64,000 nt of DNA, from the NCBI GenBank assembly GCA_040954595.2, contig CM082598.2, forward strand, positions 7,331,097-7,395,096, in the 5' to 3' direction. The position numbers and the translations under genes were made by a program. Shown piece by piece: positions 111 through 32,394 of the stretch (positions within the stretch are counted from its first letter, which is position 1; every line of letters begins with the position of its first letter). The notes beneath the pieces were generated by a model, which had not been told where the DNA came from, did not search any database, and was given only the letters and a program-made list of their open reading frames with translations. The DNA is from Balanoglossus misakiensis. Taxonomy: Eukaryota; Animalia; Hemichordata.

Positions 111-209
111 CTTGTTTTGTATGGTCACATCAGCTTTGTGTTCCAATAACAATCTGACACGGCCTTCATCACCAAACCCTGCTGCATTATGCAAAGGGGT
201 GTCTCCATT
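111..209 (-). CDS. Ankyrin cassette exon NGDTPLHNAAGFGDEGRVRLLLEHKADVTIQNK
   Basis: 99 bp, conserved splice flanks. Confidence 0.88.
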
Positions 210-3200
210 CTGTAAGTAATGGAAGAGGAGCATGAGAACAATGTTACAAAAATTGAAATGTAATGTGAAATTTCCTTAAACAAGCAAATAAACAAAAAAA
301 TGAATAAATCTTTCTCACACTCCTGGCACGCTGGGAGTGTGGGATCAGTGTGAGATCAAATCGATCCCACACTCTCACTGAATCGAAAGCTGTCTATGAC
401 ATGAGCGCTGATTGGTTGACAAAGTGTTCTTTTGCTAATGTGCGCTAAATGTTATCCAATCACGCGATGTGTATTATAAGGACAGAGACCACAACGTGAC
501 TGGACGACAGTTCCAGAGTCATTTATTCAATGTTTTTAACGAATTTGGTTAATTTGTGACTCTGTGAGAAATATAATCTCATATTTCATCCCAAAGTCAC
601 CTGCAGCTCGTTTGGGACAGAAAATCCCCAACTCATGTGAGAAATATGATCCCAGGTCCTTGGGAGTGTCATATTCTATTATTCCACATTGATAGAATAA
701 GCCTGCAGAAGTCAGGTTGGTATTTACCTTGTTTTGTATGGTCACATCAGCTTTGTGTTCCAATAACAATCTGACACGGCCTTCATCACCAAACCCTGCT
801 GCATTATGCAAAGGGGTGTCTCCATTCTGTAAGTAATGGAAGAGGAGCATGAGAACAATGTTACAAAAATTGAAATGTAATGTGAAATTTCCTTAAACAA
901 GCAAATAAACAAAAAAATGAATAAATCTTTCTCACACTCCTGGCACGCTGGGAGTGTGGGATCAGTGTGAGATCAAATCGATCCCACACTCTCACTGAAT
1001 CGAAAGCTGTCTATGACACGAGCGCTGATTGGTTGACAAAGTGTTCTTTTGCTAATGTGCGCTAAATGTTATCCAATCACGCGATGTGTATTATAAGGAC
1101 AGAGACCACAACGTGACTGGACGACAGTTCCAGAGTCATTTATTCAATGTTTTTAACGAATTTGGCTAATTTGTGACTCTGGGAGAAATATAATCTCATA
1201 TTTCATCCCAAAGTCACCTGCAGCTCGTTTGGGACAGAAAATCCCCAACTCATGTGAGAAATATGATCCCAGGTCCTTGGGAGTGTCATATTCTATTATT
1301 CCACATTGATAGAATAAGCCTGCAGAAGTCAGGTTGGTATTTACCTTGTTTTGTATGGTCACATCAGCGTTGTGTTCCAATAACAACCTGACACTGCCTT
1401 CACCACCATAGCTTCCTGCTGCATAATGCAAAGGGGTGTCTCCATGCTGTAAGTAATGAAGGAGGAACATGATGAGGATGTCAAAAAAACTGTAACATGT
1501 AACATGAGGTTATTTTGTTAAAATGAACGACCGAACAAACACACAAACAACAAATTGTCATCGCAAACTCCCTTGTGGATAATATTAACAAGCTAAATAA
1601 ATTCCGACGAAATATCTGCCAGTTGATACATTAAGAAAAGTTACTCCCAATAATTCACAAACAAACTCAAATTTGACAATTTGCAAAACAAATAACATTA
1701 CGGATAACCAATACACCAATTTTAAACTGAACTTTATTTATGATTTTCTATCGAAGAATAAACACAACACAACTGACAGTGATGTAATGTTAGTGAACAT
1801 TTCCTGAATGGGACCAATTTATTTTTACACAACCTACACAATATAGAAGAAGATTTAAACAACAACTACAGTGACGTATAGTAGAATTGTCAGAAGACAC
1901 AATGGCCAATTTGGAATAATTTGAGAGGTGTGAAGATTTACGTGGAAACAGATCAAACATCTGTGCTAACCAAACTATGTTTATTTCCTGTAGGAGGGCA
2001 TCAGATTGTTCTCAGCACAAAGTAGCCAAGCTGTGCAGACTGGACGATGTCGATCAAAGGGGAAATAAAAGAGAAATTTTATGTGACAAGGGTTAAAAAA
2101 ATCATCAATAAAATAAATGTCTACTGAGTGGTCCAACAATATCAAGTAGAGTTGTGCAATGGTGTCACTAGTTATTTGTAGAAATAGTGTTTAAATAAAA
2201 AAACTTGAATTTCACACGAAAAATCATCTGAAGAAAGTTAACACTGATTCCCTTTCTCCATCACACTGCATCAAAAAGTCTAATAACCACAGCAAGACTT
2301 GAGTGGACACTGTGGCCAATGGGAATGTTTGGCAAATAAAATTAAATGCAATGAAACACTGAATGCAGTCCTTCTTTTCATGACATATCAAGAAAAAACA
2401 AAAGTATCAAAACTCTTCATAAGAGATTCCATTGAAAGCCACAGTAGCACTAACTTTCAAGAACATTTTTGTAACCATTCCAGCCGTGCCCCACACTAAA
2501 ACAGAACAGATTGGACCAGTCACACCTCCCTTAATCCTATTGTTCCCAATGTTTATCTCGTCAATATATCTTTCGCATGCTTTTAACACCTTTTCTCAGG
2601 TTCTTGAACCTGGTTGGTTAAAATTGGCTGTTCTGGCCATCTTGATCACCCCTTTGAAATGATTGGGTAAGTGTCGGACAGTGATGAGAAGCTAAGGAGC
2701 GGAGTCGCACAGACCTCATTTTTTATAAGCTTGAGCGATTTCCAAGAGAAAGAGCAATCCAAACGCTGCCGCCGTGTTGCTCAGAATGATGAAAAAAATT
2801 GTCTGACTGAACAATTTAGGGTTACAATGTATTATATTTTATAAAGTTTATAAGAGGTAAATAGGGTTGGCACTGCGCTATATTCGGCCTGAAGTACAAG
2901 CTCAAACTGGCCGACTCCTCTCGGCACCGTCAACAAGCACCCCCACCCCCAGCAAGTACCCCCGCATGGCGTGTGTGATGTGACCATGGCTGCATTTCTG
3001 TCCTTCAGTCCTAAAAGTCGCCAAACAAACCCCAGTTTAAAAGGGCCCCAATTAATCTGAGCCGCAACAAAAAGTAAAGTCTTACTCGAAATGTTGCTAT
3101 GACTATAATTCTGACACAAAACTGATCATGAGTGTGGACTGATTGCATAAAAATATTTTGAAAGTACTTCCTGTAAAAAGGGAGGCGGCTCCACACACCA

Positions 3201-6200
3201 GACTATTTTTGTTTATGTACATGATGTACTTGTGCGGGGGTTGTCAACTTGATGTAATAGCCATTCTCAAGATTTCCAATCGTTATAAGAGTGTACGAGT
3301 GTACGTAAACAAGAAAAGTAAACTCATGAATATTAAAGTAACACAAGCCTTGTTCTCACTGTATGTTTCGACACCTGTGCAGGGCCAGTGTTTACTCTCT
3401 GCAAACACAGGGGATTAGCCCACAGAATCTCTGTGCGTCCAAACTCTAAACTTTTCGACGTTGTTTTGAAATCAACACCGTCGTAAATGGCCATGTTTAG
3501 CAACACCGCAACTAACAAAATTGAGGATGTCAAGGACATTCCAGCAACATGTTTCAGTTTCTCTATACCTGCATATGCGTTCTAGACGACTTTGTCGTCG
3601 TCTTCGACAGTTTTGATATTGTTTAGAAGTAATGAATCCATAAACGGAAAATGCCTAGACATTTCGGCGATCGAGAGAACCTTCTGAACGTTTGTGGCAG
3701 ACAGAAGTGTTGCAGACTTGGCTAAAAAACACTTGCATCCAGTGTGATTGACTTCACAATGGAAAATGACCAAAGACAATAGGCTATATCTCATAAACAT
3801 ACCCAAAAGTCACTGCAGGGTGGCGCTTTTGATCGGTGTTTGTTTATCTGGATCTCACTGCATATTTCCATCGGAGCGCTGGCCCAGTACTGGCCCTGAC
3901 CAACCCCTCCTCGCCATCACAAATTAACACCTGCGCAGCACAAGTGTAAAACGTTCTGACGAAATGACGATTTTTCGACTTTGCGAAATTTCAAAATTTC
4001 TTCATATTTCGAAAAAAATCATGGGTTATAGCTCATGAAAATAATCCAAAAATGACGATTTTTTGACTTTGCGAAATTTCAAAATTTCTTCATATTTCGA
4101 AAAAAATCATGGGTTATATAGCACATGAAAATCATCCAAAAATGACGATTTTTCGACTTTGCGAAATTTCAAAATTTCCCCCTTATTTTAAAAAAAAATC
4201 ATGGGTTATAGCACATGAAAATTTCAAAATGTTCCCCTTATTTTGAAAAAAACATGGGTTATAGCTCATGAAAATCATCCAAAAATGACAATTTTTCGAC
4301 TTTGCGAAATTTCAAAATTTCTTCATATTTCGAAAAAAATCAGGGGTTTAAGCTCATGAAAATAATCCAAAAATGACGATTTTTTGACTTTGCGAAATTT
4401 CAAAATTTCTTCATATTTCTAAAAAAAATCATGGGTTATAGAACATGAAAATCATCCAAAAATGACGATTTTTCGACTTTGCGAAATTTCAAAATTTCCC
4501 CCTTATTTAAAAAAAAAATCAAGGGTTATAGCACATGAAAATTTCAAAATGTTCCCCTTATTTTGAAAAAAATCATGGGTTATAGCTCATGAAAATCATC
4601 CAAAAATGACAAGTTTTCGACTTTGCGAAATTTCAAAATTTCCCCCTTATTGAAAATCATCCATAAACATTTCAGTGAGAACGTCCTAAAAGTCTCTCTC
4701 TCGCTGCGCTTTTTCCATTAATAATTTTTGATACAAGACACTATTTATGTTATTCTACCTGTGGATATATAGTGAATCAACGTTCAACCACACACACCTT
4801 CCATCCCACTTGTAGACACGAGAGTGAAAAACTCACCAAAATGAATTATCGGTGTTTACCATTTATTCATTTCGGCGAGATTTTTACTCTCATATCCTAC
4901 AAACGGGATGGAAGTTGTGTGGGGTTGAATGTTGATTCACTATATATCCACAATATACACATGTACATTAACATAAACGGTGTCTTGTATTAAACATAAT
5001 TAATGGGAAAGGGGCAGCGAAAGAGATTTGTCCTTTTAATAGACTTGGTGTGTATGGCCGATTTGAGGCAAATCGGCAATACCCACCACGTCTAAATCTG
5101 TGTTCACAGAAATATTCATGAATTAAAGATTTTTTTTTATTATTACAAAGTCCCACTAGCACAGCGCCAAATTTGCTTGAGACAGTTTGGAGCTATGGCA
5201 TTATTACATTAATTCATTAATTTTGCAAATGGGAATTAATTAAGTAAAACCCACTAAACTGTTATCATATTGTTGGTAATGAGTAATGTAAAAATTATGA
5301 ACAAAGTACCACTAAATTTGCTTTATTATTTCTGGAGATATGGCCTAATCACAAAACATCATTAAATATACAAATGAGCATTTAATAATAAGCCACACCC
5401 ATCAAAATCTAATCAAATCTAGATGTTATTATAACAATGATACATACCAAATTTCATAGCATTGGATTCAATTTCTCTCAAGATATGAGTAGAAAAAATT
5501 CTGTCAACGGACTGACAGACAGAAATCGCTGTGCCACAGAGTCCAAAAATGAGGTTATTATTTAAAACAAAAAGATTGAGGATAAACAATGCAAAAAACA
5601 ACAACATCCTTATGTTCGACAAGACAGTTGTTGGCAGATGCTGATAATCCCACTTTCTCATAACCCCAAATTGCTGACAGTGGAGATCAAATGTCTCAGA
5701 GATAGGAGAGACAATCACATCATCATCATGAGTCAATACTTGCCTGTGTCTGTACAACACCTGACTCGATAGAGGGAGTAGTTTTGATTCAAAGGACAAT
5801 GGACAAATAGATACATTGAATCCCAGACACAATTTACCAAAAAAACTACAGTGGAAATTGGGACTATTGAGAAAGCTAATACTTTTAGAATTAATATGCA
5901 GAAGTCAGGTTGGTATTTACCTTGTTTTGTATGGTCACATCAGCTTCGTGTTCCAATAACAATCTGACACTGCCTTCACCACCACCCCTCCTTGCTGCAA
6001 TATGCAAAGGGGTGTCTCCATCCTGTAAGTAATGAAGAAGGGGCATGAGAACATGTCACACAAATTGAAATGAAATGTGTAATTACCTTAAACAAACAAA
6101 TAAATGAATAAATCTTTCCGCATTGGTAGAATTAACCTGCAGAAGCCTGGTTGGTATTTACCTTGTTTTGTACGGTCACATCAGCTTCGTGTTCCAATAA

Positions 6201-9200
6201 CAATTTGACACCGCCTTCACCAAACCTTGCTGCATCATGCAAAGGGCTGTCTCCATCCTGTAAGTAATGAAGGAGGAGCATGATGAGGATGTCAAGAAAA
6301 CTGATACATGTAACATGAGGTTCTTTTGTTAAAATGAACGATCGAACAAACACACAAACGACAAATAATCGCAAACTCCCTTGTGGATAATATTAACCAA
6401 CAGTAAAATGGCATTTGAACAGAAACTGTATCGAATCTACACACAAAATGTGTAATTCAGTTTTATACATGAATTTTAACGAGCTAAAATAATTTGACAA
6501 AATATCTGCCAGTTGATACAGAAAGAAAAGTTGCTCCCAACAATTAAGAAACAAACTCAAATTTGACAACTTGCAAAACAAATAACATTACGGATAACCA
6601 ATACACCAATTTTAAATTGAACTTTATTTATGATTTTCTATCAAAGAATGAACACATCACAATTGACAGTGATGTAATGTTAAGTGAACATTTCCTGAAT
6701 GGGACCAATTTATTTTTACACAATATAGAAGAAGATTTAACCAACAACTACAGTGACGTATAGTAGAATTGTCAGAAGACACATTGCCAATTTGGAATAA
6801 TCACATCTCATCTCCAATATGATGACAAATTTGAGAGATGTGAAGATTTCCGTAGAAACAGATCTAACATGACTGTGCTAAACAAACTATGTTTATTTCC
6901 TGTAGAAGGGCATCAGACTGTTCTCAGCACAAAGTAGCCAAGCTGTGCAGACTGGACAATGTCGATCAAGGGGGAAATGAAAGAGAAATTTGAGAGATGT
7001 GAAGATTTATGTAGAAACAGATCAAACATCTGTGCTAACCAAACTATGTTTATTTCCTGTAGGAGGTCATCAGACTGTTCTCAGCACAAAGTAGCCAAGC
7101 TGTGCAGACTGGACAATGTCGATCAAAGGGGAAATGAAAGAGAAATTTGAGAGATGTGAAGATTTATGTAGAAACAGATCAAACATCTGTGCTAACCAAA
7201 CTATGTTTATTTCCTGTAGGAGGTCATCAGACTGTTCTCAGCACAAAGTAGCCAAGCTGTGCAGACTGGACGTTGTCCATCAAAGGGGAAATAAAAGAGA
7301 AATTTGAGAGATGTGAAGAGTTATGTAGAAACAGATCAAACATCTGTGCTAACCAAACTATGTTTATTTCCTGTAGGAGGGCATCAGACTGTTCTCAGCA
7401 CAAAGTAGCCAAGCTGTGCAGACTGGACGATGTCGATCAAAGGGGAAATAAAAGAGAAATTTGAGAGATGTGAAGATTTATGTAGAAACAGATCAAACAT
7501 CTGTGCTAACCAAACTATGTTTATTTCCTGCAGGAGGGCATCAGACTGTTCTCAGCACAAAGTAGCCAAGCTGTGCAGACTGGACGATGTCGATCAAAGG
7601 GGGAAATAAAAGAGAAATTTGAGAGATTTGAAGATTTATGTAGAAACAGATCAAACATCTGAGCTAACCAAACTATGTTTATTTCCTGTAGGAGGGCATC
7701 AGACTGTTCTCAGCACAAAGTAGCCAAGCTGTGAAGACTGGATGATGTCAATCAAAGGGGAAATTAAAGAGAAATTTGAGAGATGTAAAGATTTATGTAG
7801 AAACAGATCAAACATCTGTGCTAACCAAACAATGTTCATTTCCTGTAGGAGGGCATCAGAACATTCTCAGCACAAAGTAGCCAAGCTGTGCAGACTGGAC
7901 GTTGTCGATCAAAGGGGAAATTAAAGTGAAATTTGAGAGATGTAAAGATTTATGTAGAAACAGATCAAACATCTGTGCTAACCAAACTATGTATATTTCC
8001 TGTAGAAGCTAGGGCATCAGACTGTTCTCAGCACAAAGTAGCCAAGCTGTGGAGACTGGACGATGTCGATCAAAGGGGAAATTTTAGAAAAATGTTATGT
8101 GACAAGGGATTAATCAATCATCACTAAAATAAATTTCTACTGAGTGTTCCAACAATATCAAGAAGAGTTGTGCAGTGATGTCGTTTGTTATCTGTATAAA
8201 TAGTGTTTAAAAATAAAAAACTTGAATTTCACAAAAAAATCCATCTGAAAAAAGTCTAATAACCAAAGCAAGACTTAAGTGGACACTGTGGCCAATGGGA
8301 ATGTGTGGCAAATGAAATTAAATGCAATGAAACACTGAATGCAGTCATTCTTTTCATGAAATATCTGGCCATCTTGATCACCCCTTTGAAATGATTGGGT
8401 AAGTGACGGACAGTGATGAGAAGCTGAGGAGCGAAGCCGCACAGACCTCATGTTTTATAAGCTCGGCGATTTCCAAGAGAAAGACAAATCCAAACGCTGC
8501 CATCTTACTCAGAATGATGATAAAATTGTCCGACTGAAAAATTTGGTGTTACAATATATTATATTTTATGAAGTTTATAAGAGGTAAATAGGGTCGGCAC
8601 TGCGCTATTCGGCCTGAAGTACAAGCTCAAACTGGCTGACTTCTCTCGGCACCATCAACAAGCACCCCCGCCCCCACCAAGTCCCCCGCATGGCATGTGT
8701 GATGTGACCATGGCTGCGCTTCCGTCCTTCGGTCCTAAAAGTCGCCAAACACACCCCAGTTTAAAACGGCCCCAATCAGAGCCGCAACAAAAACAAGTTC
8801 TTCTGGTAAAGTCTTACTCGAAATGTTGCTATGACTATAAATCTGACACAAAACTGATCATGAGTGTGGACTGGTTGCATAAAAATGTACATGTATTTTG
8901 AAAGTACTTCCTGTTAAAAGGGAGGTGGCTCCACACATCAGACTATTTTTGTTTATGTACATGATGTACTTGTGCAGGGGTTGTCAACTTGATAGCCATT
9001 CTCAAGATTTCCAATCGTTATAAGTGCGTACGTAAACAAGTAAACTCATGAATATTAAAGGGACAAAGTCTCTCTCTCTCTCGCTGCCCTTTTCTATCAA
9101 TTATGACGTTTGATACAAGACACGGTTTATGTTATTCTACATGTGGATTTATAGTGAATCAACGTTCGACCACACACAACTTCAATCCTACTTGCAGACG

Positions 9201-15200: not shown

Positions 15201-18200
15201 CTATTCCAGAATTGATCCGCTGACTTCTTTGAAATTTAGTATGAAGCTTCATATATGTGATCTGAGTTACCATAATTTTGTTTAAATTGTTGCAAAATTT
15301 GCATATTTATCATTTTTGCCTTTTTGATCAAATATGTTTTCTCTATAACTGCTTGTCAGATTGCTTTGAAATTTGGAAGACATGTTCCTAGGGGTACCCC
15401 AAGTAAGATTTGCATGTATGTATTTTCAAATCAACGTGAAGAATTCAATACATTTAGTGTACTTTTGGTTAAACTTTTTCTCAGAACCCTCTACCCCCAT
15501 TGCTTTGAATTTTGATTTGATGGTTCTTGGGTGAGTTGTCATGGTGATTACAGTGTCAATGTTTTGTGGGGGCAATATCTTGTATTTTGGGAGCATATTT
15601 TCCAATTTTGATAAAAAATTATATTTCTCTGAAAGTGTATTCTGTATGGCTGATTACTGTAAAATTCGAGTGTAAGTTAATGAGATTGGTTTCTTTAGAA
15701 ATACTATGGAATCAAATCATAGGTAATTTGGAACTTTTATATTTTGTAGGATATTTTTTCTCATACCACAATTTTTATCTCAATAAGAACAATTACCAGT
15801 ACATAGTTCTTTGTAATACAAAAATGCACCCCTCTGAGATTTGTATACACATCAAATTCCTGCATGTTTACATAACTGGCTAACTGTTAAAGAGACCAGC
15901 TGTTCTACTTGGTCTATGTACATTTCACATGCCATTGGCAGCTTATGGGTCAGGCAGTGTTTGCCTATTGATCTCTCTATGTGTGTGTGTCTGTATATGT
16001 ACTCCGGTGTAGACTCTTTCTGTGTAATCCCTAAATGGGATCATGGTGGCCGTGACACATGTTTTTGAGTTGGATGTCTCCACGTTAATGTAGCTTTAAA
16101 TGATAGAGTTGAATTAAATGAATGCATTGTGTGTAATAGGTCCACCATGTCAGAATGTTCAATTTGACTTTGTTTAGAGATAACAGATAAATTTCCTCAT
16201 AACAATGAACAATTTCAAAAGCTGCAAACCATAGAAGGTAAAATAGCCAGACCAATGTATTTGATAGATATCCTCATGATTTTAGTCCAGAGGCTTGATG
16301 AAAATTTGATTTTAATCTTTTAAACAATGATCTCTTTTCATGAAATTTATAATTTTTACAATGTCTGTCTCTCATCAGGTCTGTTACAAAGAAAAATACA
16401 GACAGTAGATTGTGCCTTTATTTATATTGACAGTTTTGAGGGAAAAACTGATTTGGATCAATTTGTATAGATCTGCATGAGACCAGAAAATTTACATGGA
16501 TGGGAAATCTTTGTTTAGACTAATGACTAGAGATGACTTTGATGATCATTAATGTTCAGAAAGTGTTTGTTTGAGTGAAATACTGTGTTTTGACTTGCAT
16601 AGAGTGCCTAAATTACTGTTATCATTATCAGAGGTAGAGAACTTGTCCTTGGTCATCCATTATTATGAAGCATTTTCATTGTGAGTAACTTAATTTCTTG
16701 CCAACACCGTACTGGTGAGTATTTCTGTATGTAATGGAAGAGGAGCATGAGAACAATGTCATAACATTTGAAACATACTGTGAGGATTCCTAAACAAACA
16801 AACAAACAAACAAACAAATAAATAAATGTTTCTATACTAATAGCATTAATCTGCAGAAGTCAGGTTGGTATCCTCGTCAAGTGATGCCGGCGCATGCGCA
16901 ATTAGGCTAGATAAAATTTCTTTGTTCAGCGCACACAGTGAGTAATTTTCCATGTGAGGAAAAAAATATCAAACATGTTGAATATCGTGATCCGCGACAC
17001 AAAAGTAAAAATATCAGGAAAAATCGCTCGCACACGGAAGGAAAATTGCTGAGCAAAATTCCTCGAATGACTTTTTGCTCAGCTGATTTCTCTCGTGTGC
17101 GGCAGCCTTAATGGCGGAGGAGCATGAGAACAATGTACATAGTATTTGAAACATACTGTGAGGATTCCTAAACAAACAAACAAATAAATGAATAAATCTT
17201 TCCATACTGATAGAATTAACCTGCAGATGTGATGTTGGTATTTACCTTGTTTTGTATGGTCACATCAGCTTCGTGTTCCAATAACAATCTGACACGGCCT
17301 TCATCACCATACTCTGCTGCAAAGTGCAAAGGTGTGTCTCCATCCTGTAAGTAATGAAGGAGGAGCATGATGAGGATGTCAATAAAACTGTAATGCATGA
17401 GGTTAATTTCTTAAAATGAACGAATGAATGAACAAACAAACAAACAAACAACAAATTGTCATCACAAACTCCCTTGTGGATAATATTAACCAACAGTTAA
17501 TGGCATTTGTAGTGTATCAGATGTATTCTGATCTCCCTGTATTGACTTTGGTACATTCCAGACGCATGGCAGTATGGGACATATAGCCTCGTTCTGATAC
17601 TCTCTCTGGTAGTTGTAGTTCTCCTTGTTATGTGTACAAGCAATACATACCTGTTCGTGTTCATGATTCAATTCGGAGAGTCCTATAAGTTACGAAGTAA
17701 GAGCGACTGACACGTATAAACACATATACTGTGAGAAGCGGTACATAACACTGGCGACGAGTATTTCACCCACATCCTTGAAGGAAGATTAAAAAACCAG
17801 CGCCCGATTCCAAAATTCGACTTCTATACTAATCCGTCAACCCTGGGGCCACGATGGGAGCGATGGCTGACGTCATTTGAACTGTACGCCGATGGAAAAG
17901 GTTTGATAATTAATGACGACTCCTCGAAACAAAGGCGGAGAGCTTTGTTGTTGCATTTAGCCGGTCCAGACGTACAGGACATTTTTACAACTTTGTCAGA
18001 TACGGGAACAGTCACAGAGTATAACAGAGCCGTGACAGCGCTGAACACCTACTTTATGCCCCAAGTCAACCCTGCGTTCGCCAGACAGACATTCCATCAA
18101 ACCACACAAAAGCAAGGTGAGACCGTACTTCAATTTGTCACCCGCCTACATAAAGCTGCCAGTGATTGTAACTTCGGAGGTGATAAAGACAATCAAATCA

Positions 18201-21200
18201 GAGACGCAGTGCTGAATAAATGTTCGTCAGATTACGTACGCCAGTAGTTATTGGAAGAAGGCCAAGCATTGACCTTAGCACGTACCCTACAAATAGCCGA
18301 TCAGTGCGAGAAAGTGGAGGTACAAATGGCTGCTCTTTCAGCAAAGAGAGAAGACAGGGAAACTGTCAACAGACTTACTGATAGAGGCAAACGCCGTACA
18401 CAGAAAGCAAAGAAACATGAGAAAGATAAAGATACAAAACCAGCAAGAGATAAAACTTGTTATCGCAGTGGATTGACAGGACACTTTGGTCGCGATCCCA
18501 AATGTCCAGCAAGAGGCCAGACATGCTAGAAATGCGACGGCAAGAATTACTTTGCCAAAGTATGCAGGTCAAAGGTTAAATCAGAAGTCAATGTGGTCGA
18601 AGAGCCGCAAAACAGCCCAGCACCGCCCGATTACACCTTCACTGTCAACAGTGGTAAGAACTCAAACACACTTGATGTCCATGTTGGTGGTGTAAACCTG
18701 AAAATGTTGGTAGACTCAGGCGCAACTGGCAACATTATTGATGAGCCGACCTGGGAGCAATTAAAGCGACAGAAGATCAGATGTGCATCACAGGCCAACA
18801 CATGCGGACGAAAAATGTACCCGTATGGATCAAACCAACCCCTAACCGTCAAGGGCCGTTTCACATGTGAAGTACAGGTGGGCAGAAACATCACCAATGC
18901 TGAATTCCTAGTCATTAAAAGCAAAGACATACCTTTACCCGGCAAGGACACATCAACAAAATTGGGTGTACTGAAAATTGGTATTGTTGCACACATCGCA
19001 AAAGTAACAGACATGGCTGACCGCTTACAGCGACAGTACCCGGATGTCTTTACTGGTGTGGGCAAGCTCAACACAAAGCAAATAAAACTTCACATCGACC
19101 CCTCCGTAGAACGTGTAGCACAACCCCTGAGGCGAACACCATTCAACTTGAGAGGAAAGGTAGGGGCGAAAATAAAAGAGCTACTTGATTTGGACATTAT
19201 TGAACCAGTAGACGGGCCGACACCATGGGTCAACCCAGTCGTTGTAGTGCCAAAATCAGGAGGTGACATCAGACTATGCATCGACATGCGCAGAGCAGAC
19301 AAAGCGGTCACACGCGGCAGACACCCTATCCCTACCGTAGATAAGCTGTTACAGAACATGAACGGTTCCAAAGTGTTCAGCAAACTAGACTTAAAGTGGA
19401 GTTACCACCAGTTGGAGCTGACGCCAGAATCCCGTGAGATCACAACATTCGCCACACACGCCGGACTGTATCGTTACAAATGATTGCTATTTGGTGTAGG
19501 TTCAGCGAGTGAACAGTATCAACACTAAATTGTGACAGCCCTGGCAGGCGTTGATGGTGTAGAAAACATATCTGATGATGTCATAGTACATGGGTGTGAC
19601 CAGGAAACACATTTTACTTGCAGTTTACTTGCAGTCATAACCTGATTACGCGATTGTGGTCTAACACTGAACCGTGAAAAGTGTCAATTCAACATGGATG
19701 ACCTTGTTTTCATGGGAATACTACTGTCACAGAAGGGTATAGGACCAACCCAAGACAGAGTTAGAGCCGTATTGGAGGCCAGAGAACCGAGAGATGTATC
19801 TGAAGTCAGAAGCTTCATGGGCATGGTTAGTTACAGTAGCCGATTTATACCAGGTCTCGCAACCATCTCAGAACCGCTGAGGAGAATCACCAGAAAGAAC
19901 GTGCCATTCCATTTTGGTGCAGAACAGAAATCAGCATTTGCAGAGCTGAAGGCAAGTTTAGCCAAAGCAACAACCCTAGCCTACTTCGACAAAAACGCTC
20001 CGACGAAAGTGATTGCTGATGCCAGTCCCGTAGGACTAGATGCAGTGCTAGTGCAGGAGCAGAACAAAATGCTAGTTCCAGTTTGTTATGCAAGCCGTAG
20101 CCTCACCGATTGTGAGAGGAGATACTCGCAGACTGAACGTGAACAGTTCCGATCCGAAGAGTTCCAGAAATACTGTGACCACAACAGCATCACACACCTT
20201 AGTGTTACAGCAAGGTGGGCTCAAGCTAACGGCGAAGTAGAAAGCCAGAACAGAGATCATTGATGGAGAGAATCTGTATCGCTCAGGCCGAAGGGCTAGA
20301 TTGCAAACGAGAGCTGAGAAGATACGTGACCAAATACAGAGGCATAGATCATGCTACTACAGGCAAAAGCCCAGCCGAACTCCTATTCAGATGCAAGATA
20401 ACATTTGAAACATACTGTGAGGATTCCTAAACAAACAAACAAACAGACAAACAAATGTTTCTATACTAATAGCATTAATCTGCAGAAGTCAGGTTGGTAT
20501 CGTCGTCAACTGATGCCGGCGCATGCGCAATTAGGCTAGATACGTGAGTAAAATTACTTTGTTCGGCGCACACGGTGAGTAATTTTCCTCGTCAGGAAAA
20601 AAATATCAAACATGTTGAATATCGTGATCCGCGGCGCAAAAGTAAAAAGATCAGGAAAAATTGCCCGCACACGGAAGGAAAATTGATGAGCAAAATTCCT
20701 CGAATGACTTTTTGCTCAGCTGATTTCTCTCGTGTGCGGCAGCCTTAATGGAGGAGGAGCATGAGAATAATACCGTAACATTTGAAACATACTGTGAGGT
20801 TTTCCTAAACAAACAAACAAACAAATAAATGAATAAATCTTTCCATACTGATAGAATTAACCTGCAGAAATCAGGTTGGTATTTACCTTATTTTGTATGT
20901 TAGCATCAGCTTTGTGTTCCAATAACAATCTGACACGGCCTTCATCACCAAACCATGCTGCATAATGCAAAGGTGTGTTTCCATTCTGTAAGTAATGAAG
21001 GAGGAGCATGATGAGGATGTCAATAAAACTGTAATGTCACATGAGGTTAATTTCTTAAAATGAATGAACGAATGAATGAACAAACAAACAAACAAACAAA
21101 CAAACAACAAATTGTCATCACAAACTCCCTTGTGGATAATATTAACCAACAGTTAATGGCATTTGTAGTGTATCAGATGTATTCTGATCCCCCTGTATTG

Positions 21201-24200
21201 ACTTTGGTACATTCCAGACGCATGGCAGTATGGGACATTTAGCCTCGTTCTGATACTCTCTCTGGTAGTTGTAGTTCTCCTTGTGTGCAAGCAATAAATA
21301 CCTGTTCGTGTTCATGATTCAATTCGGAGTGTCCTCTAAGTTACGAAGTAAGAGCGACTGACACGTATAAACACATATACTGTGAGAAGCGGTACATAAC
21401 ACTGGCGACGAGTATTTCACCCACATCCTTGAAGGAAGATTAAAAAACCAGCGCCCGATTCCAAAATTTGACTGCTATACTAATCCCTCAACCCTGGGGC
21501 CACGATGGGAGCGATGGCTGACGTCATTTGAACTGTACGCTGATGGAAAAGGTTTGATAATTACTGACGACTCCACGAAACAAAGGCAGAGAGCTTTGTT
21601 GTTGTATTTAGCCAGTCCAGACGTACAGGACATTTTTACAACTTTGTCAGATACGGGAACAGTCACAGAGTATAACAGAGCCGTGATATCGCTAAACACC
21701 TACTTTATGCCCCAAGTCAACCCTGCGTTCGCCAGACAGACATTCCATCAAACCACACAAAAGCAAGGTGAGACCTTACTTCAAGTTGTCACCCGCCTAC
21801 GTAAAGCTGCCAGTGATTGTAACTTCGGAGGTGATAAAGACAATCAAATCAGAGACGCAGTGCTGAATAAATGTTCGTCAGATTACGTACGCCGGTAGTT
21901 ATTGGAAGAAGGCCAAGCATTGACCTTAGCACGTACCCTACAAATAGCCGATCAGTGCGAGAAAGTGGAGGTATAAATGGCTGCTCTTTCAGCAAAGAGA
22001 GAAGACAGGGAAACTGTCAACAGACTTACTGATAGAAGCAAACGCCGTACACAGAAAGCAAAGAAACATGAGAAAGATAAAGATACAAAACCAGCAAGAG
22101 ATAAAACTTGTTATCGCTGTGGATTGACAGGACACTTTGGTCGCGATCCCAAATGTCCAGAAAGAGGCCAGACATGCAAGAAATGCGACGGCAAGAATTA
22201 CTTTGGCAAAGTATGCAGGTCAAAGGTTAAATCAGAAGTCAATGTGGTCGAAGAGCCGCAAAGCAGCCCAGCACCGCCGGATTACACCTTCACTGTCAAC
22301 AGTGGTAAGAACTCAAACACACTTGATGTCCATGTTGGTGGTGTAAACCTGAAAATGTTGGTAGACTCAGACGCAACTGGCAATATTATTGATGAGCCGA
22401 CAGCAGATCAGATGTGCATCACAGGCCAACACATGCGGACGAAAAATGTGCCCGTATGGATCAAACCAACCCCTAACCGTCAAGGGCAGTTTCACATGTG
22501 AAGTACAGGTGGGCAGAAACATCACCAATGCTGAATTCCTAGTCATTAAAGGCAAAGGCGTACCTTTACTCGGCAAGGACACATCAACAAAATTGGGTGT
22601 ACTGACAATTGGTATTGCTGCACACATCGCAGCAGTAACAGACATAGACCACTACGCGGATAGGATATCTGCAATGCATGACGGTATACTTTGCGTTCAA
22701 CATAGAGTCTAGTACATGACCAACGCACGCGCTCAGAACAACACCCTGCGTTATGCCATGGTTATGCTATCCGCGAAGTGGTCCATGGCTGACCGCTTAC
22801 AGCGACAGTACCCGGATGTCTTTACTGGTGTGGGCAAGCTCAACACGAAGCAAATAAAACTTCAAATCGACCCCTCCATTCAACTTGAGAGGAAAGGTAG
22901 GGGCGAAAATAAAAGAGCTACTGGATTTGGACATTATTGAACAAGTAGGCGGGCCGACACCATGGGTCAACCCAGTCGTTGTAGTGCCAAAATCAGGAGG
23001 TGACATTAGACTATGCATTGACATGCGCAGAGCAAACAAAGCGATCATACGCGGCAGACACCCTATCCCTACCGTAGATGAGCTGTTACAGAACATGAAC
23101 GGTTCCAAAGTGTTCAGCAAACTAGACTTAAAGTGGGGTTACCACCAGTTGGAGCTGACGCCAGAATCCCGTGAGATCACAACATTCGCCACACACGCCG
23201 GACTGTATCGTTACAAATGATTGCTATTTGGTGTAGGTTCAGCGAGTGAACAGTATCAACACGAAATTGCGACAGCCCTAGCAGGCATTGATGGTGTAGA
23301 AAACATATCTGATGATAGTACATGGGTGTGACCAGGAAACACATTTTACTTGCAGTTTACTTGCAGTCATAACCTGATTACGCGATTGTGAACCGTGAAA
23401 AGTTTCAATTCAACATGGATGACCTTGTTTTCATGGGAATACTACTGTCACAGAAGGGCATAGGACCAACCCAAGACAGAGTTAGAGCCGTATTGGAGGC
23501 CAGAGAACCGAAAGATGTATCTGAAGTCAGAAGCTTCATGGGCATGGATAGTTACAGTAGCCGATTTATACCAGGTCTCGCAACCATCTCAGAACCGCTG
23601 AGGAGAATCACCAGAAAGAACGTGCCATTCCATTTCGGTCCAGAACAGAAATCAGCATTTGCAGAGCTGAAGGCAAGTTTAGCCAAAGCAACAACCCTAG
23701 CCTACTTTGACAAAAACGCTCCGACGAAAGTGATTGCTGATGCCAGTCCCGTAGGACTAGGTGCAGTGCTAGTGCAGGAGCAGAACAAAATGCTAGTTCC
23801 AGTTTGTTATGCAAGCCGTAGCCTCACCGATTGTGAGAGGAGATACTCGCAGACTGAACGTGAACAGTTCTGATCTGAAGAGTTCCAGAAATACTGTGAC
23901 CACAACAGCATCACACACCTTAGTGTTACAGCAAGGTGGGCTCAAGCTAACGGCGAAGTAGAAAGCCAGAACAGATCATTGATGAAGAGAATATGTATCG
24001 CTCAGGCCGAAGGGCTAGATTGGAAACGAGAGCTGAGAAGATACGTGACCAAATACAGAGGCATAGATCATGCTACTACAGGCAAAAGCCCAGCCGAACT
24101 CCTATTCAGACGCAAGATAAGAGGGAAATTGCCAGAATTCAACGCAGAGCATCACAACGACATAGATGTACGTGACAGAGATGTCGAACAGAAAGGAAAA

Positions 24201-27200
24201 GCAAAGATGTATGCAGATGAAAGAAGGAATGCGCGATATTCTGAAGTGCAAGTTGGAGATAAAGTTCTAGTTGAGCAGCAGAAGACAAACAAATTGTCAA
24301 CTCCATTTAACCCGGAGCCGTATACTGTTGTCAACAAAACTGGGAATAGCATCATAGTTGAGTCCCCGAGAGGTGTTCAATATTCTAGGAATACCACACA
24401 CGTCAAGACATACATCACTGACACCGTAACACCAGAGCAGGAGACAAACAGCCAGCACAACAAGAATCGCCACCTGCTATATCACCCTGTGACCAGTCTT
24501 TGCAGAGAATGATCAGCGGGAAAGTCCACAGACTCCGACAGATTCACCTATGACTAGTAGTGGCAGACCACAAAGGTCCAGGCAACTGCCATCAAAATAC
24601 TCAGATTTTCTTGTTAGCTATTAGCTTTGACCCTGAATATTGACATTGAAATTTGTCAGTAGTTTATTGTTGTTTTCAGATATGCGCGGAACACTGATAT
24701 AAGGAAAATACATACTGCGGACGTGTTCATGTTTATGCATTGTTGGACATGCATTCGTTTCACATTTTGCTGTTGATTTTTTGTAAACTTTAAACTGTGC
24801 ATTTTCGTGGACACTTGACATTCCATTGACACATTAGTAGCCTGAAGAGCTATTCCAAGAAAAGGAGGGATGTAGTGTATCAGATGTATTCTGATCCCCC
24901 CTGTATTGACTTTAGTACATTCCAGACGCATGGCAGTATGGGACATATAGCCTCGTTCTGATACTCTCTCTGGTAGTTGTAGTTCTCCTTGTGTGCAAGC
25001 AATAAATACCTGTTCGTGTTCATGATTCAATGCGGAGTGTCCTCTAATTAACGAAGTCAGAGCGACTGACACGTATAAACACATATACCGTGAGAAGCGG
25101 TTCATAACAGCATTTGAACAGAAACTGTATCGACTGTAAACATGTGTAATTCAGTTTTATACATGTACCTAAACGATCGCGCTAAATAACTTCTTTGAAA
25201 ATATCTGCCAGTTGATACAGAAAGAAAAGTTACTCCCAGTAATTGACAAACAACCTCAAATTTGACAATTTGCAAAACAAATAACATTACGCATAACCAA
25301 TTTTAAACTTAACTTTTTTATGATTTTCTTTCAAAGAATGATTACATCACAACTGACAGTGATGTAATGTTAGTGAACATTTACTGAATGTGACCAATTT
25401 ATTTATGCAACCTACACAATATAGAAGAAGATCTAGCCAACAACTACAGTGACATTTAGTAGAATTGTCAGAAGAAACATTGGCCAATTTGGAATAATCA
25501 CATGTCATCTCCAATATGATGACAAATTTAAGAAATGTGAAGATTTATGTAGAAACAGATCAGACTGTTCTCAGCACAAAGTAGCCAAGCTGTGCAAACT
25601 GGATGATCTCAATCAAAGGGGAAATAAAAGAGAAATTTGAGAGGTGTGAAGATTTATGTAGAAACAGATCAAACATCTGTGCTAATCAAACTGTGTTTAT
25701 TTCCTGCAGGAGGGCATCAGACTGTTCTCAGCACAAAGTAGCCAAGCTGTGCAGACTGGACGATGTCAATCACAGGGGAAATTGAAGAGAAATTTGAGAG
25801 ATGTGAAGATTTATGTAGAAATAGATCAAACATCTGTGCTAACCAATTTATGTTTATTTCCTGTAGGAGGGCATCAGACTGTTCTCAGCACAAAGTAGCC
25901 AAGCTGTGCAGACTGGACGATGTCAATCAAAGGGGAAATAAAAGAGAAATTTGAGAGATGTGTAGAATGATGTAGAAACAGATCAAACATCTGTGCTAAC
26001 CAAACTATGTTTATTTCCTGCAGGAGGGCATCAGACTGTTCTCAGCACAAAGTAGCCAAGCTGTGCAGACTGGACGATGTCAATCAAAGGGGAAATAAAA
26101 GAGAAATTTGAGAGATGTGTAGAATGATGTAGAAACAGATAAAACATCTGTGCTAACCAAACTATGATTATTTCCTGTAGGAGGGCATCAGACTGTTCTC
26201 AGCACAAAGTAGCCAAGCTCTGCAGACTGGACGATATCGATCAAAGGGGAAATTAAAGAGAAATTTGAGAGATGTGAAGATTTATGTAGAAACAGATAAA
26301 ACATCTGTGCTAACCAAACTATGCTTATTTCCTGTAGGAGGGCATCAGACTGTTCTCAGCACAAAGTAGCCAAGCTGTGCAGACTGGACGATGTCAATCA
26401 AAGGGGAAATATAAGAGAAATTTGAGAGATGTGAGGATTTACGTAGAAACAGATCAAACATCTGTGCTAACCAAACTATGTTTATTTCCTGTAGGAGGGC
26501 ATCAGACTGTTCTCAGCACAAAGTAGCCAAGCTGTGCAGACTGGACGATATCGGTCAAAGGGGAAATTAAAGAGAAATTTTATGTGACAAGCGATAAATC
26601 TATCATCATTAAAATATATTTCCACTTGTTGTCCAACAATATCAAGTAGAGTTTTGTAACGATGTCATTACCGGTAGTTATCTGTATAAAAAATGATTAA
26701 ATAAAACAAGCGACCTAGCGTCCGATAGAGCTCCACTGTAATGGGTTGCAGAAATGATTAGGTAACCAGTTAGCATGCAGGTTATGATGAGAAGCTGAAT
26801 ATTCAATATAGATGGTAGAAAATAAGAAAGTGTGGAGGATAGACATACACACATGGTTGAGACTTTTTCACTAGTCCCAAAAATTACAAATATGCAAATG
26901 TAACCACAATTTGAACAAACTAAGGTCACCCCAAGGAAGCTGCATATCAAATTTCCAATCAATTGGAGCAGCCATTTCAGAGAAGAAGACAAAAAATTAT
27001 TTTGGACCAAAAACGGGGAAAATTGCCCCAAAAATACAATATGCAAATGTCACCACAATTTGAGCAAACTTGACTTAGGTCACTCCAAGGAAGCTGCATA
27101 GAACATTTCCAATCAATTGGAACAGAGGTTTCTGAGAAGACAAAAGAAGAAAAATGTTCACGGACGGCGGACGACATACGCCGGATGACAACTAAGAGTT

Positions 27201-30200
27201 CACCTATCTGATAAGCTCCACGTCTCTGACTGCAGAGCTAAAAACTTGAATTTCACACAAAAAATCCATCTGAAGAAAGTTAACACTCACACTGCATCAA
27301 AAAGTATAATAACCAAAGCAAAACATGAATGGACACTGTGGCCAATGGGAATGTGGTAAGACACTGAAATACTGAAATGCAGTCATTCCATGGGAAGAAA
27401 TATTTTAATGAAATATCACGGACAAACAAAAGCAACAAAACTCTTCATAAGAGATTCCATTGAAAGTCACAGTAGCACCAATTGTCAAGGACATTTGTGT
27501 AACCATTCCAGCCATGCCCCACACTAAAACTGAACAGATTGGACCAGTCACACCTCCCTTAATCCTATTGTTCCCAATGTTTATCTCATCAATATATCTA
27601 TTGCATGCTTTGAGCACGTTTTCTCAGGTTCTTGAACCTGGTTGGTTAAAATTGGCTGTTCTGGTCATCTTGATCACCCCTTTGAAATGATTGGGTAAGT
27701 GACAGACAGTGATGAGAAGCTGAGGAGTGGAGCCGCACAGACCTCATGTTTTATAAGCTTGAGCTATTTCCTAGTGAAAGAGCAATCCAAATGCTGCCGC
27801 CGTGTTACTCAGAATGATGAAAAAAATTGTCCGACTGAACAATTTAGTGTTACAATGTATTATATTTTATAAAGTTTATAAGAGGTAAATAGGGTCAGCA
27901 CTGCACTATTCGGCCTGAAGTACAAGCTAAAACTGGCCGACTTCTCTCGGCACCGTCAACAAGCACTCACGCCCCAAGCAAGTCCCCCGCATGCCATGTG
28001 TGATGTGACCATGGCTGCGCTTCCGTTCTTCGGTCCTAAAAGTTGCCAAACAAACCCCAGTTTAAAACGGCCCCAATCAGAGCCGCAATGAAAACAAGTT
28101 CTTCTGGTGAAGTCTTACTAGAAATGTTGCTATGACTATAATTTTGACACAAAACTGATCATGAGTGTGGACTGATTGCATAAAAAATATTTCGAAAGTA
28201 CTTCCTGTAAAAAAAGGGAGGCGGCTCCACACACCAGACTATTTTTGTTTATGAACATGATGTACACGTGCGGGGGTTGTCAACTTGATGTAATAGCCAT
28301 GATTCTCAAGATTTCCAATGGTTATAAGAGTGTACGTAAACAACAAAAGTAAACTCCTGAAAATTAAAGGGACAAAGTCTCTCTCTCGCTTCCCTTTTGC
28401 CATTAATTATGTTTGATACAAGACACTGTTTATGTTATTCTACATGTGTATGTAGTGAATCAACGTTTGACCACACACAAATATGCAAAGGAGAATTTAT
28501 TAATAAGCCATACCTACCAAAATCTTATCAGATCTAGAACTTATCATAACAATGCTTTATACAAAATTTCATATCATTGGATTCAATTTCTCTCAAGATA
28601 TGAGTGGAACAAAATCTGTCTACAGAAGGACAGACAGAAATCGCTGTATCACAGAGTCCAATAATGAGATTATTATTGAAACCACAAAATATTGACGATA
28701 AACAATGCAAAAAACAACAACATCTTTATGTTCAACGAGACAGTTTTTGGCAGATGCTGGAGACCCTTTCTCATAACTCCAAATTGCTCACAGTGGAGAT
28801 CAAATGTCTCAGAGATAGGAGAGACAATCACATCATCATCATGAGTCAATATTTGCCTGTGTCTGTACAATACCTGACTCGATAGAGGGAGTAGTTTCGA
28901 TTCAAAGGACAGTGACAAATTATATGGCGCCTCCTTATGATGAATTGTATTAGGTGACAGACAGGAGTTGCCAGATGCTGGAGGCCGACAGACAATCGCC
29001 CTATCTGATACTCTCTGTGATAGGATTGGCATCGACCGTCATCAGTCAACACCTGTCTGTACAACACCTGACCAATAGAGGGAGTAGTTTTGATTCAAAG
29101 GGCAATGGACAAATAGATACATAGTATCCCAGACACAATTTACTAAGAAAACTACAGAGGAAATGGGACTATTGAGAAAGCTCATACTTTTAGAATTTAC
29201 CTGCAGAAGTCAGGTTGGTATTTACCTCGTTTTGAATGGTCACATCAGCTTTATGTTCCAATAACAATCTGACACAGCCTTCACCAGCACACCCTGCTGC
29301 ATCATACAAAGGGGTGTCTCCATCCTGTAAGTAATGAAGGAGAAGCATGGGAACAATGTCACAAAAATTGAAATGTAATGTGAGGTTTCTTAAAACAAAC
29401 AAATAAACACTTAAATGTGAGGTGTAAACAAACAAACAAACCTACAAATAAATAAAAATATCATACCATCAGCCATATTGCAAAAAACAACCAAGAATGG
29501 CATACTGACTGATTTGAAAGGATAATCCACAGTACTTCCACACACACACAATGAAAATTGCCGACTGTTAAAGTGAAAACAGATCAAAGAATCTCAATTG
29601 ATTCTAACAGCGAGGAAAACGCTTTGACTGGTCATATAGTTTTTAACATTGGATGTTTTAGACTCCATAGCTTAGCTAGGGATGGAGGGGATCTGGAAGA
29701 TTTAAAAAAAAGATTGCCAGCAAAATTTCAGAGATGGCTTGAAAAAAATGAAAATTTGTGAACTTTGGTGAAACACAAAAAAATCCATCAAAATTTACTT
29801 TCTGGAACATATTTATTCATTCGGCACAAACTGTGTCAAATACACTATGGTTCAACATATTTGGCTAAATTGTAAAGATTGTTAAATTTAGAGTACAATG
29901 CGTCCTACTGTCCTTCCTATGGCAGGATCCCAGGGTAAAACTAAATCAGTATGGGTAATAATTTTTGGCCTTTCCCTCTTCTTGTTCAGGGGTTAGCTTG
30001 TTTCTTCCCATTGAATTTGGATCATGCAAAGTAATTTTGGATGAAAATAAGAGTGTTGTAATTAGGTCTTTTTCAAAGGCATTTTTTTATTATCCAATTG
30101 TGTGGCCACGTTATCCATAATAAAGTGATAAGTCAGTTCACGTACCTCATCCTTCGCATTGACATCTGCACCATGGCTAATCAACACCCTGACAGCATCC

Positions 30201-32394
30201 AATTTACCTTCGAAGGACGCTGCATGCAATGCTGTGCAACCATACTGGAATAAAGACGTTTAATGTTGGAATAAAAATGACATCACAAATTTGATACTTG
30301 CAATGTGAGTCAACTGATTGATCTTCTGATGAAGAAACTCTAGGAATTTCATCACAATGAGCTTCAGTCACTATTGTAATAATGGTTTTGATTACGATGG
30401 TGTGTTATTTCAGTAATAGTTTGATATTATGAGGTTATGATATTATGATATTATGATATTATGAGGCTCGTGTGGGTTGTGAGCTGCATCACACTCGTCT
30501 TCGACTCGTGTGATGCGGCTCACAGCCCACACTCGCGGCAAATATGGCCCAACAAGACGTGATATGGGGCGATAACCGATTTATCATATGCTCAAACCTC
30601 GGAATTTACAAGAAAAATGAAAAAAATAAAACAAGAACATTTAATTTTTATGAATTATTTTATTCCGCCTAGCGCATTGATATTTTAATAAAATTGTAAA
30701 TCGGCTTCATTCATGATGATGTTGTTGACGTGACCCGCCATTTTAAAGTGTAGCGCTAGCGTACGGTTATGTAAAAGTATGAGGATAACTGTTAAGATGT
30801 AAAATAACGGTAGGAAACGACAACATCGGTCAAAGATGTTTTAGAATGGTAAATTGTTCAAGGACCGCTCTGCATCATGCAAAACAACACATTCTGAAAA
30901 TTGAATTTGAATCGGTGCAACAACAACAACGAACAAGTGAACGTCATCAACATTGCGATGAAATTCAAAATCGGTATGAAATTAGTTAAATTGCAAATAA
31001 AGCCAGAGGCCTTTTATTTCAAAGTTCGAGAGTCTCAAAGTCTGCTCATTTTTTGTGAATTTTTTGATGAGCACGGAGAGTCATATCTGACTGCACGACG
31101 GCGTCGTTTGTACAGTGGCAGGGGCTGTGTCATGGAGGATGATCCCGTCGACGTCGCATTGGAAACGCACAGATATTGAACGAGCCGCCATATATCACTG
31201 CGTCGCTAAATATACCAACCCTTGTCGCCGTTTCCATCTGACACGTACTTGAACTGGTCGAACCAGATTTCACATGTGAAATTGCCCGATTTTCGACGTG
31301 TTTGGATGAAGATTGGGCGAGGACATCTCTTCCTGCTGTCTGAGCGAGGCGGTATTTTTTACAGGTGTAACTGACAATCGTGTTTTTTTCTAAATCAATC
31401 ACACAAGATAAATCTTTTATTTATAACAAATGTCCGAGGCCATCAGAACCCCATGACTTTCGATGTTGACTACCGGTATATCAAATCTCATGAAACCGGG
31501 CCCTGTATCGGGTTATATTAGTTTACATTTAAGGTCGCGATTTTCATAAACATAGTTCCGGGTATCAGCGCAAGAAATGATGACGTTTAGTGCGAAATAT
31601 CACCGGGTGATATTTCACACTAAACGTGGTAATATTCACGTTAAACGTCACTAGGAGGAGGTGATATCAGCATGAGCATATGATAAAGATTTGAATCTGA
31701 AAGATCATAATAATGGTATTTTCTGAGATTGAGTGACAATTCTCTATGACCAAAATACATGTACAGTAAAACCTGTCTAATCCGAACACCAACGGGACAG
31801 AAGCAATTTTTCAGTTTACAGACGTTTCCGGTTGGTAAAGGTTCTTTTAACACGTGGTTCTATGTCAAGGGGACAGGAAAATGTGTTCATTATAGACTGT
31901 TTTCCAGATACGGCATGTTCCATTTCGACAGGTTTTACTGCATGTGGTTGAACCACATTGAACAAAACTGTAGACTGATACCATGTTCACACTAGGTAAA
32001 ACTGGAACTTTTGATGAAACAGTCCACGCTGAATTGATATTATTTATATTTGTGGGCTAGTGTAGATCTTTTTTGCAGAATCTAAATGTGGTGTTGTGAT
32101 ATCATTTTGGGAGTGTGTGGTATTTTGGGAGTTCATAGAAATCTAGTTGATTCAGTGTTATTATTGTGTGAAAAGCCAGTCACTCACATGGCGTTCACAC
32201 AGAGACCATTGAAATGTTTCTGAAACGTCTCTGGTCAAATGCTGGCATAAAATATTACATGTGAACAGTTAAAATGGTCCTGGAACGTTTCAGATTTGAG
32301 ACAGTTTTTGCTGGCCAGACCTGTGGTGTAAAGGATTAACATCTCTCCACAACACATTGTCTATGGGGCGATCTAGTTCCAGGGTCTATGCTTT

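Follow-up and report, generated by a model that had tools for sequence, protein, structure and literature searches.

A 64,000-nucleotide (nt) stretch of the Balanoglossus misakiensis genome (GenBank assembly GCA_040954595.2, contig CM082598.2, positions 7,331,097 to 7,395,096), here called the window, has a GC content of 38.8% and carries on its minus strand an array of ten near-identical cassette exons, each encoding one 33-residue ankyrin repeat. An earlier note on this DNA had placed ten exons between positions 111 and 29324, and all were located there; each is flanked by AG and GT, is in phase 0, and has an open reading frame. From the upstream end, the cassettes are E29324 (29226 to 29324), the copy with the greatest divergence, which has TPLY in place of TPLH; E20985 (20887 to 20985), E17344 (17246 to 17344), and E10780 (10682 to 10780), all of 99 nt; E10541 (10443 to 10541), which a 140-nt intron separates from E10780; E6257 (6162 to 6257); E6022 (5921 to 6022); E1446 (1345 to 1446); E826 (728 to 826); and E209 (111 to 209). 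Seven cassettes are 99 nt long, E6257 is 96 nt long, and E6022 and E1446 are 102 nt long. The one deletion and two insertions that account for these lengths each involve a single codon, keep the frame, and fall within the loop between helix 1 and helix 2, beside the variable codons.

The array is without doubt composed of ankyrin repeats. The Pfam Ank model matched E826 above its cut-off along the whole repeat (residues 1 to 33 of 33), and the 33-residue pattern G-x-T-P-L-H...L-L...A-D matches 337 solved sequences. E209 is identical to E826 (0 of 99 mismatches), and statistics were computed on the nine distinct exons, whose mean pairwise identity is 89.5% for DNA and 0.79 (range, 0.64 to 0.93) for amino acids. 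The splice flanks are also near-identical across cassettes, and the shortest introns between cassettes are 139 to 140 nt long. Positions 1 to 110 of the window are occupied by an intron of this ~140-nt type; since this leads into a further acceptor flank, the array extends past the left edge of the window.

Upstream of the array, three further minus-strand exons were predicted. The first coding part would comprise an ATG, 10 codons in all, and a phase-0 donor (34965 to 34994, a prediction from sequence). Exon 2 (33075 to 33173; AG/GT, phase 0, open) is predicted to encode an N-capping ankyrin repeat and by itself gave no Pfam match, and predicted exon 3 (30146 to 30244) encodes a unique ankyrin repeat that Pfam Ank recognized above its cut-off (E value, 4e-11).

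The cassettes differ from one another chiefly at a few codons. The earlier note had listed the codons in use at positions 1, 8, 11, and 12, and these lists proved correct. A fifth hypervariable codon, codon 17 (CGT, AGT, GGT, or TGT), had been missed. Each of the five holds all four bases at one position, and all nine distinct cassettes differ from one another at these codons. The scaffold and flanks diverge by about 7%, versus about 36% at codons 1, 8, 11, 12, and 17. The proportion of nonsynonymous sites that differ (pN) was 0.46 to 0.50 at codons 1, 8, 11, and 12 and 0.06 elsewhere. Outside these four codons, the ratio of pN to the corresponding synonymous proportion (pS) was 0.52 to 0.57, which, along with the ten open frames and the three in-frame indels, speaks for cassettes that are functional. 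Synonymous divergence at the four codons was not comparable to nonsynonymous divergence, apart from one placement of the two insertions, under which the ratio falls to 1.8. The replacement excess is limited to a few codons; for the exon as a whole, pN/pS was 0.93 to 0.99.

The background against which these codons vary was less uniform than had been described. GCT GAT is indeed invariant in all ten exons, but the 15-nt run TTG TTA TTG GAA CAC is shared by nine, E29324 having CAT for CAC. Third positions show no special fixity, differing among cassettes at 2 of the 5 hypervariable codons (3 of 5 if codons 11 to 14 of the two insertion exons, masked in this count, are included) versus 9 of the 28 others. 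Nor are neighboring synonymous sites fixed, with a pS of 0.11 to 0.13 across the exon; intron flanks differ at 0.07 to 0.11. Third positions appear fixed because the copies are young and background divergence is low (pS of about 0.11), and this low divergence is in part the result of plain recent duplication rather than of homogenization.

Positive selection was assessed with GY94 site models, using our own Python implementation rather than PAML, on the nine distinct exons with codons 11 to 14 of the two insertion exons masked. Comparison of M2a with M1a gave likelihood ratio test (LRT) statistics of 33.3 and 31.4 on two trees, with nonsynonymous-to-synonymous rate ratios (omega) of 11.5 and 9.0, and comparison of M8 with M8a gave 33.4, 36.2, and 31.4 on three. 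The positive class, with an omega of 9 to 12, comprised about 15% of codons and always consisted of codons 1, 8, 11, 12, and 17, each at a posterior of at least 0.97 (naive empirical Bayes). The statistic was 28.4 under F1x4 codon frequencies. When only the five indel-free exons with TPLH were used, it was 16.8, and codons 8, 11, and 12 remained. None of 72 null simulations that included exchange between copies reached 31 (maximum, 15.2).

A count that uses no tree gave the same picture. Five of 61 zero-fold sites hold four bases and one more holds three, while no more than two bases occur at any of the 90 sites that are two-, three-, or four-fold degenerate or lie in intron flanks, a concentration well beyond what chance would give. 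Comparing four-base zero-fold sites with the 65 four-fold and intron sites gave a Fisher P value of 0.024, and in 14 of 16 settings, fully neutral simulations of the allele count gave P values no higher than 0.01.

We compared the variable codons with the binding face of designed ankyrin repeat proteins (DARPins), taking that face from the DARPin papers and not from a model of this protein. Exon codon n corresponds to module position n + 2 in the consensus numbering of PMC4308713. In the library described in PMC3308923, module positions 2, 3, 5, 10, 13, and 14 were randomized, having been chosen since they point out of one exposed surface. Codons 1, 8, 11, and 12 are DARPin positions 3, 10, 13, and 14, so that four of the six randomized positions are represented, and the presence of four of the five top codons among 6 binding positions of 33 has a P value of 0.0017. 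The cassettes thus resemble DARPins in having a fixed scaffold with variation at these four positions; they differ in that they are natural, nearly constant at positions 2 and 5, additionally variable at module position 19, and marked by loop indels. Natural selection has arrived at much the same positions that protein engineers randomize. Near-identical ankyrin arrays also occur in abalone proteins of nSTAND type, where they are C terminal, and in a Lingula TIR protein, where they are N terminal (P0002, P0003, and P0004); the Lingula protein P0003 is variable at the same binding positions, its entropy being independently highest at positions 1, 3, 14, 12, 8, 33, and 11.

Taken together, the site models, the allele count, and the match to ankyrin binding positions support the first part of the original proposal, that the ankyrin cassettes are under diversifying selection. 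The second part, concerted evolution by birth and death, is likewise supported, in the form of unequal crossing-over or exchange. The basic unit is apparently one exon plus a ~140-nt intron, as seen in E10780-E10541, in E6257-E6022, and from E209 to the window edge; such units were later split by insertions and recopied as blocks of 0.6 to 3.6 kb. E826 is a chimera. From its acceptor flank to codon 25 it equals E209 at all 8 diagnostic sites, and in its donor flank it equals E1446 at all 5; the introns on either side of it differ at 3 of 518 nt. This pattern is as expected from one unequal crossover. E20985 and E17344 differ upstream at 39 of 1,575 nt, none of them in the last ~200 nt, then within the exon at 12 of 99 nt (8 of the 10 changed codons being replacements) and downstream at 27 of 468 nt (P = 0.0009, upstream versus downstream). 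This step in divergence therefore places an exchange boundary at the acceptor. A closed, exon-sized conversion patch in this pair was ruled out, as divergence is still raised downstream.

Exchange also has moderate support from the four-gamete test, which 36 of 66 informative site pairs outside the five codons fail, a level attained by 0 to 9% of clonal simulations. Homogenization between neighbors in the duplicated pair is only suggestive: E10780 and E10541 differ at 6 sites, versus 11 and 8 to their block partners, and E6257 and E6022 differ at 9. Deaths are visible as well. In two slots (20503 to 20747 and 16872 to 17110, both on the minus strand), an acceptor flank, a ~240-nt unrelated insert, and a donor flank follow one another, with the exon and both splice sites gone; the inserts are the same, and the slots are 91% identical. 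A third slot (16723 to 16755, minus strand) retains only an orphan acceptor flank with its AG and has no exon after it. Because E826 is chimeric and three slots lack an exon, unequal exchange both creates and removes copies; the repeat region thus shows births, deaths, and recombination of exons, along with block duplications. No inverted cassette copies were found on the opposite strand of the window.

Other features lie among and beyond the cassettes. The insert of the two dead slots begins right after a TTA in the acceptor flank, is absent elsewhere in the window, and is possibly a truncated nonautonomous DNA transposon. A broken gag-pol copy of a long terminal repeat (LTR) retrotransposon (17735 to 20263, plus strand) lies in an intron and was duplicated along with E17344/E20985; the second copy (21386 to 24512, plus strand) is 94 to 95% identical to it. 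Pfam matches in this element were Retrotrans_gag, Asp_protease_2, and RVT_1, and only Asp_protease_2 and PNMA exceeded curated cut-offs. Satellite arrays with a 157-nt unit occupy introns at 6827 to 8082 (8 copies) and 25559 to 26580 (6.5 copies), with 94 to 95% matches; they move along with the block duplications, and a single diverged unit lies near 1900 to 2100. The intron between E6022 and E1446 holds a compound tandem array of 55, 88, and 144 nt (3962 to 4656). In most copies, positions +13 to +27 of the donor flank contain a branch-point-like CTGAC followed by CAG/GT, 25 nt in; this AG/GT was ruled out as a recursive splice site, as it is missing in 4 of 10 copies. Upstream, positions 35200 to 61500 form a patchwork of 80 to 98% identical segmental repeats of 0.2 to 1.4 kb with ~5-kb recurrences, and include a 1.35-kb inverted pair (52276 to 53626 and 56579 to 57926, 98.6%). 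No ankyrin or Roc-COR exon was found in this upstream region.

The gene probably belongs to the ROCO family, as an ankyrin-Roc-COR member, judging from sequence comparison of its repeats and N terminus. In a profile search with the cassettes, the top-ranked of 3,982 matches, with 7,988 candidates scored, was P0001 (XP_070546715.1), an ankyrin-Roc-COR protein of Ptychodera flava. This protein, P0121 (XP_070546714.1), P0124, P0125, P0127, and P0128 are predictions automatically named "DAPK1-like." The Roc-COR half of P0001 recovered 13 proteins: seven from Ptychodera, one from Glandiceps, four from Branchiostoma, and one fish DAPK1. Among 285 fetched proteins, the best single match of exon 2 was P0127 (62% over 29 amino acids), and that of exon 3 was P0001/P0121 (70% over 30 amino acids). 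The K-N-P of predicted exon 1 aligns by eye with the N termini of P0127 and P0001, and exons 1 to 3 are collinear with Ptychodera ankyrin-Roc-COR N termini, in the same order and spacing. The Ptychodera proteins P0001, P0121, P0124, P0125, P0127, and P0128 share this plan, with K-N-P, an N-cap repeat, and a second repeat, and their internal repeats are similar (66% to P0001), numbering from one to more than 15. They differ in that none found is this gene and in that the repeats of P0001 are older and more diverged. The closest relatives carry Roc-COR and not STAND, and on present evidence the gene is not an NLR. The Branchiostoma ankyrin-Roc-COR proteins P0131 to P0134 have varied C-terminal parts (CARD, glycosyltransferase, caspase, and kinase in precomputed Pfam annotation), a variety in keeping with a conflict-type family.

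Further searches for the gene itself returned little. When exon 2 was extended by 7 read-through residues and used as a protein query, 1 candidate was considered and nothing scored. A HMMER search with exon 2 against 1.84 billion representatives listed 150 multi-repeat proteins, at most 55% identical, and this gene was absent among them. An exact 23-nt pattern matched 0 stretches in metagenome contigs.

From these data we consider it likely that the ten ankyrin exons, variable mainly at five codons, belong to a probable ankyrin-Roc-COR sensor whose binding surface has been diversified by ordinary point mutation under positive selection. Because each repeat is one phase-0 exon, the reading frame survives the gain, loss, or exchange of copies. 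A unit of ~240 nt, exon plus intron, would have been multiplied by unequal crossing-over through the common exon and splice flanks. Exchange would keep the scaffold and flanks alike, and selection would keep different residues at codons 1, 8, 11, 12, and 17. The gene runs off the left edge of the window, and, judging from the relatives, the Roc, COR, and C-terminal regions would lie beyond it. The default expectation is a transcript in which all cassettes are joined in order and encode a single long ankyrin stack; some exons may be skipped. The cassette variation likely reflects selection for new binding specificities. By analogy with known sensors, the ligand would be fast changing and probably pathogen derived, and on the same analogy the product would be a probable pathogen sensor with an immune role.

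Several observations weigh against this reading. The sample comprises only nine distinct sequences of 33 codons. Exchange between copies, like a wrong tree, makes the site test liberal: 19% of the 72 null simulations were significant at the nominal 5% threshold. In the other two neutral settings of the allele count (star tree, divergence of 0.2, strong rate variation), P values were 0.13 and 0.26; the neutral divergence presupposed in these settings is about double that observed. Codons 3 and 33 (DARPin positions 5 and 2, respectively) scarcely vary, and codon 17 (module position 19) lies outside the designed binding set. The scaffold is under weak purifying selection (omega, 0.36 to 0.66), so some copies may be idle. 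For the family assignment, the first-rank margins are small (38.1 versus 37.4 bits for exon 2 and 44.7 versus 43.1 bits for exon 3), the 285 ranked proteins are biased in their make-up, and unrelated ankyrin proteins match the cassette repeats no less well than those of Ptychodera do. A tblastn search of the window detected neither a Roc nor a COR exon. Our confidence in ROCO membership is limited by these small margins and by this negative result, and the Roc-COR half can only be inferred because the array leaves the window.

The same selection could also act on an alternatively spliced library, in which exons are skipped or chosen one of many, as in Dscam. This is a possibility that we regard as doubtful. 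It would suit cassettes that are all in phase 0 with near-identical splice flanks and all distinct at the five codons, as well as two relatives, P0127 and P0124, in which the same N terminus is followed by only one or two internal repeats; the exons of brown-algal LRR-ROCO genes (LRR, leucine-rich repeat) are reported to be alternatively spliced (PMC11378527). However, introns of 139 to 140 nt leave room to include neighboring exons, and the annotation of P0001, a relative, shows a single long stack with 15 motif-matching repeats. A search for docking-type duplexes, covering the 820-nt intron before the first cassette and the final 1.25 kb of the intron that precedes exon 3, found none that was outstanding, with 2 to 16 of 20 shuffles as strong. 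A bolder version, in which the exons are an interchangeable library of ROCO sensors, or natural DARPins, combined differently per cell or per animal by skipping or somatic exchange, strikes us as somewhat less plausible again. It is very unlikely that the variety was imported ready-made by conversion from diverged paralogues with little new selection here. Scaffold variants of E20985 (codons 3, 28, 29, and 32) and donor-flank variants of E17344 are unique among the copies, and Ptychodera has several paralogues of the family; yet conversion from diverged donors should also leave third alleles at synonymous and flank sites, which have none, and import could supplement selection but not replace it.

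Even less probable is recent duplication with relaxed constraint, under which the variable codons would be free to drift and might be mutation hot spots. The whole-exon pN/pS of about 1 is what such drift would give, decay is evident in the dead slots and the TPLY copy, and codon 17 contains the sole CpG of the exon. Drift permits an omega of 1, however, not of 9 to 12, and both M1a and M8a, which include a neutral class, were rejected; moreover, synonymous-type and intron sites never hold more than two bases, and the variable codons coincide with binding positions. A targeted mutator rewriting the variable codons, either adenine specific as in diversity-generating retroelements or AID/APOBEC-like, had been left open in the earlier note and is now barely credible. 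Its sole attraction is the NAT, NNT, NNG, and TNT pattern, which we take to resemble A-to-N change on an AAT/AAG/TAT template. Against it, three four-fold adenines (codons 2, 9, and 10) are invariant, as are 22 of 30 majority-A sites, none of which holds four bases; the four-base sites have the majority bases G, G, G, T, and C; and 3 of 13 WRC/GYW sites vary, none with four bases. Adenine-specific and AID-type mutagenesis were rejected, as change is neither base nor motif specific. Reverse transcriptase is encoded in the window solely by the broken LTR element, and variation follows codon position, which a mutator acting on DNA cannot see.

The closest parallels are in brown algae and fungi. 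Zambounis et al. (2012, PMC3341825) report Ectocarpus ROCO genes in which every exon encodes a single LRR, some copies are dead or rearranged, and the concave face carries residues under positive selection; alternative splicing of brown-algal LRR-ROCO repeat exons is reported by Teng et al. (2024, PMC11378527). The present array likewise has one repeat per equal-length exon, live and dead intronic copies, local duplication and recombination, about four positively selected binding-face residues, and, as inferred here, probably the same Roc-COR switch. In contrast, the brown-algal repeats, in what these sources give, are LRRs of 72 nt, with alternative splicing shown, whereas those described here are ankyrin repeats of 99 nt in phase 0 in a hemichordate animal, with no inverted opposite-strand copies in this window. 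Fungal NLRs with high internal conservation (HET-E/HNWD WD40, ANK, and TPR) are described in PMC13449251 as built from near-identical repeats in which diversifying selection acts on about four hypervariable positions; these repeats are gained, lost, and swapped, unequal crossing-over is proposed, ANK versions exist, and such repeats are noted in NLR-like proteins beyond fungi. The cassette identity of 0.79, used as a proxy and not a T-REKS value, lies above the high-internal-conservation threshold of that study (Psim, 0.7). The fungal proteins are STAND ATPases (NACHT or NB-ARC) with C-terminal repeats, whereas the cassette repeats are N terminal, have their own exon and splice flanks each, and are likely coupled to a Roc GTPase switch.

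Expansions of conflict-related architectures in sessile marine invertebrates, including hemichordates, are reported in PMC8195603, the accessible portion of which does not cover the ankyrin-Roc-COR family. In the titles and abstract openings searched, which took in few subscription journals, no paper described an array of this kind in a hemichordate, and none described ankyrin exon shuffling in an animal ROCO gene. The findings single out an expanded ROCO family as candidate pathogen sensors and define five exact codons (1, 8, 11, 12, and 17) as targets for testing; the most would be gained from learning whether a single animal assembles the exons in different combinations. They bring the variable immune-sensor recipe of brown algae and fungi, with homogenized repeats, hypervariable binding residues, and shuffling, to a hemichordate, near the root of the deuterostomes. 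The array is the ankyrin, animal counterpart of brown-algal LRR-ROCO exon shuffling, and it works like the fungal high-conservation sensors.

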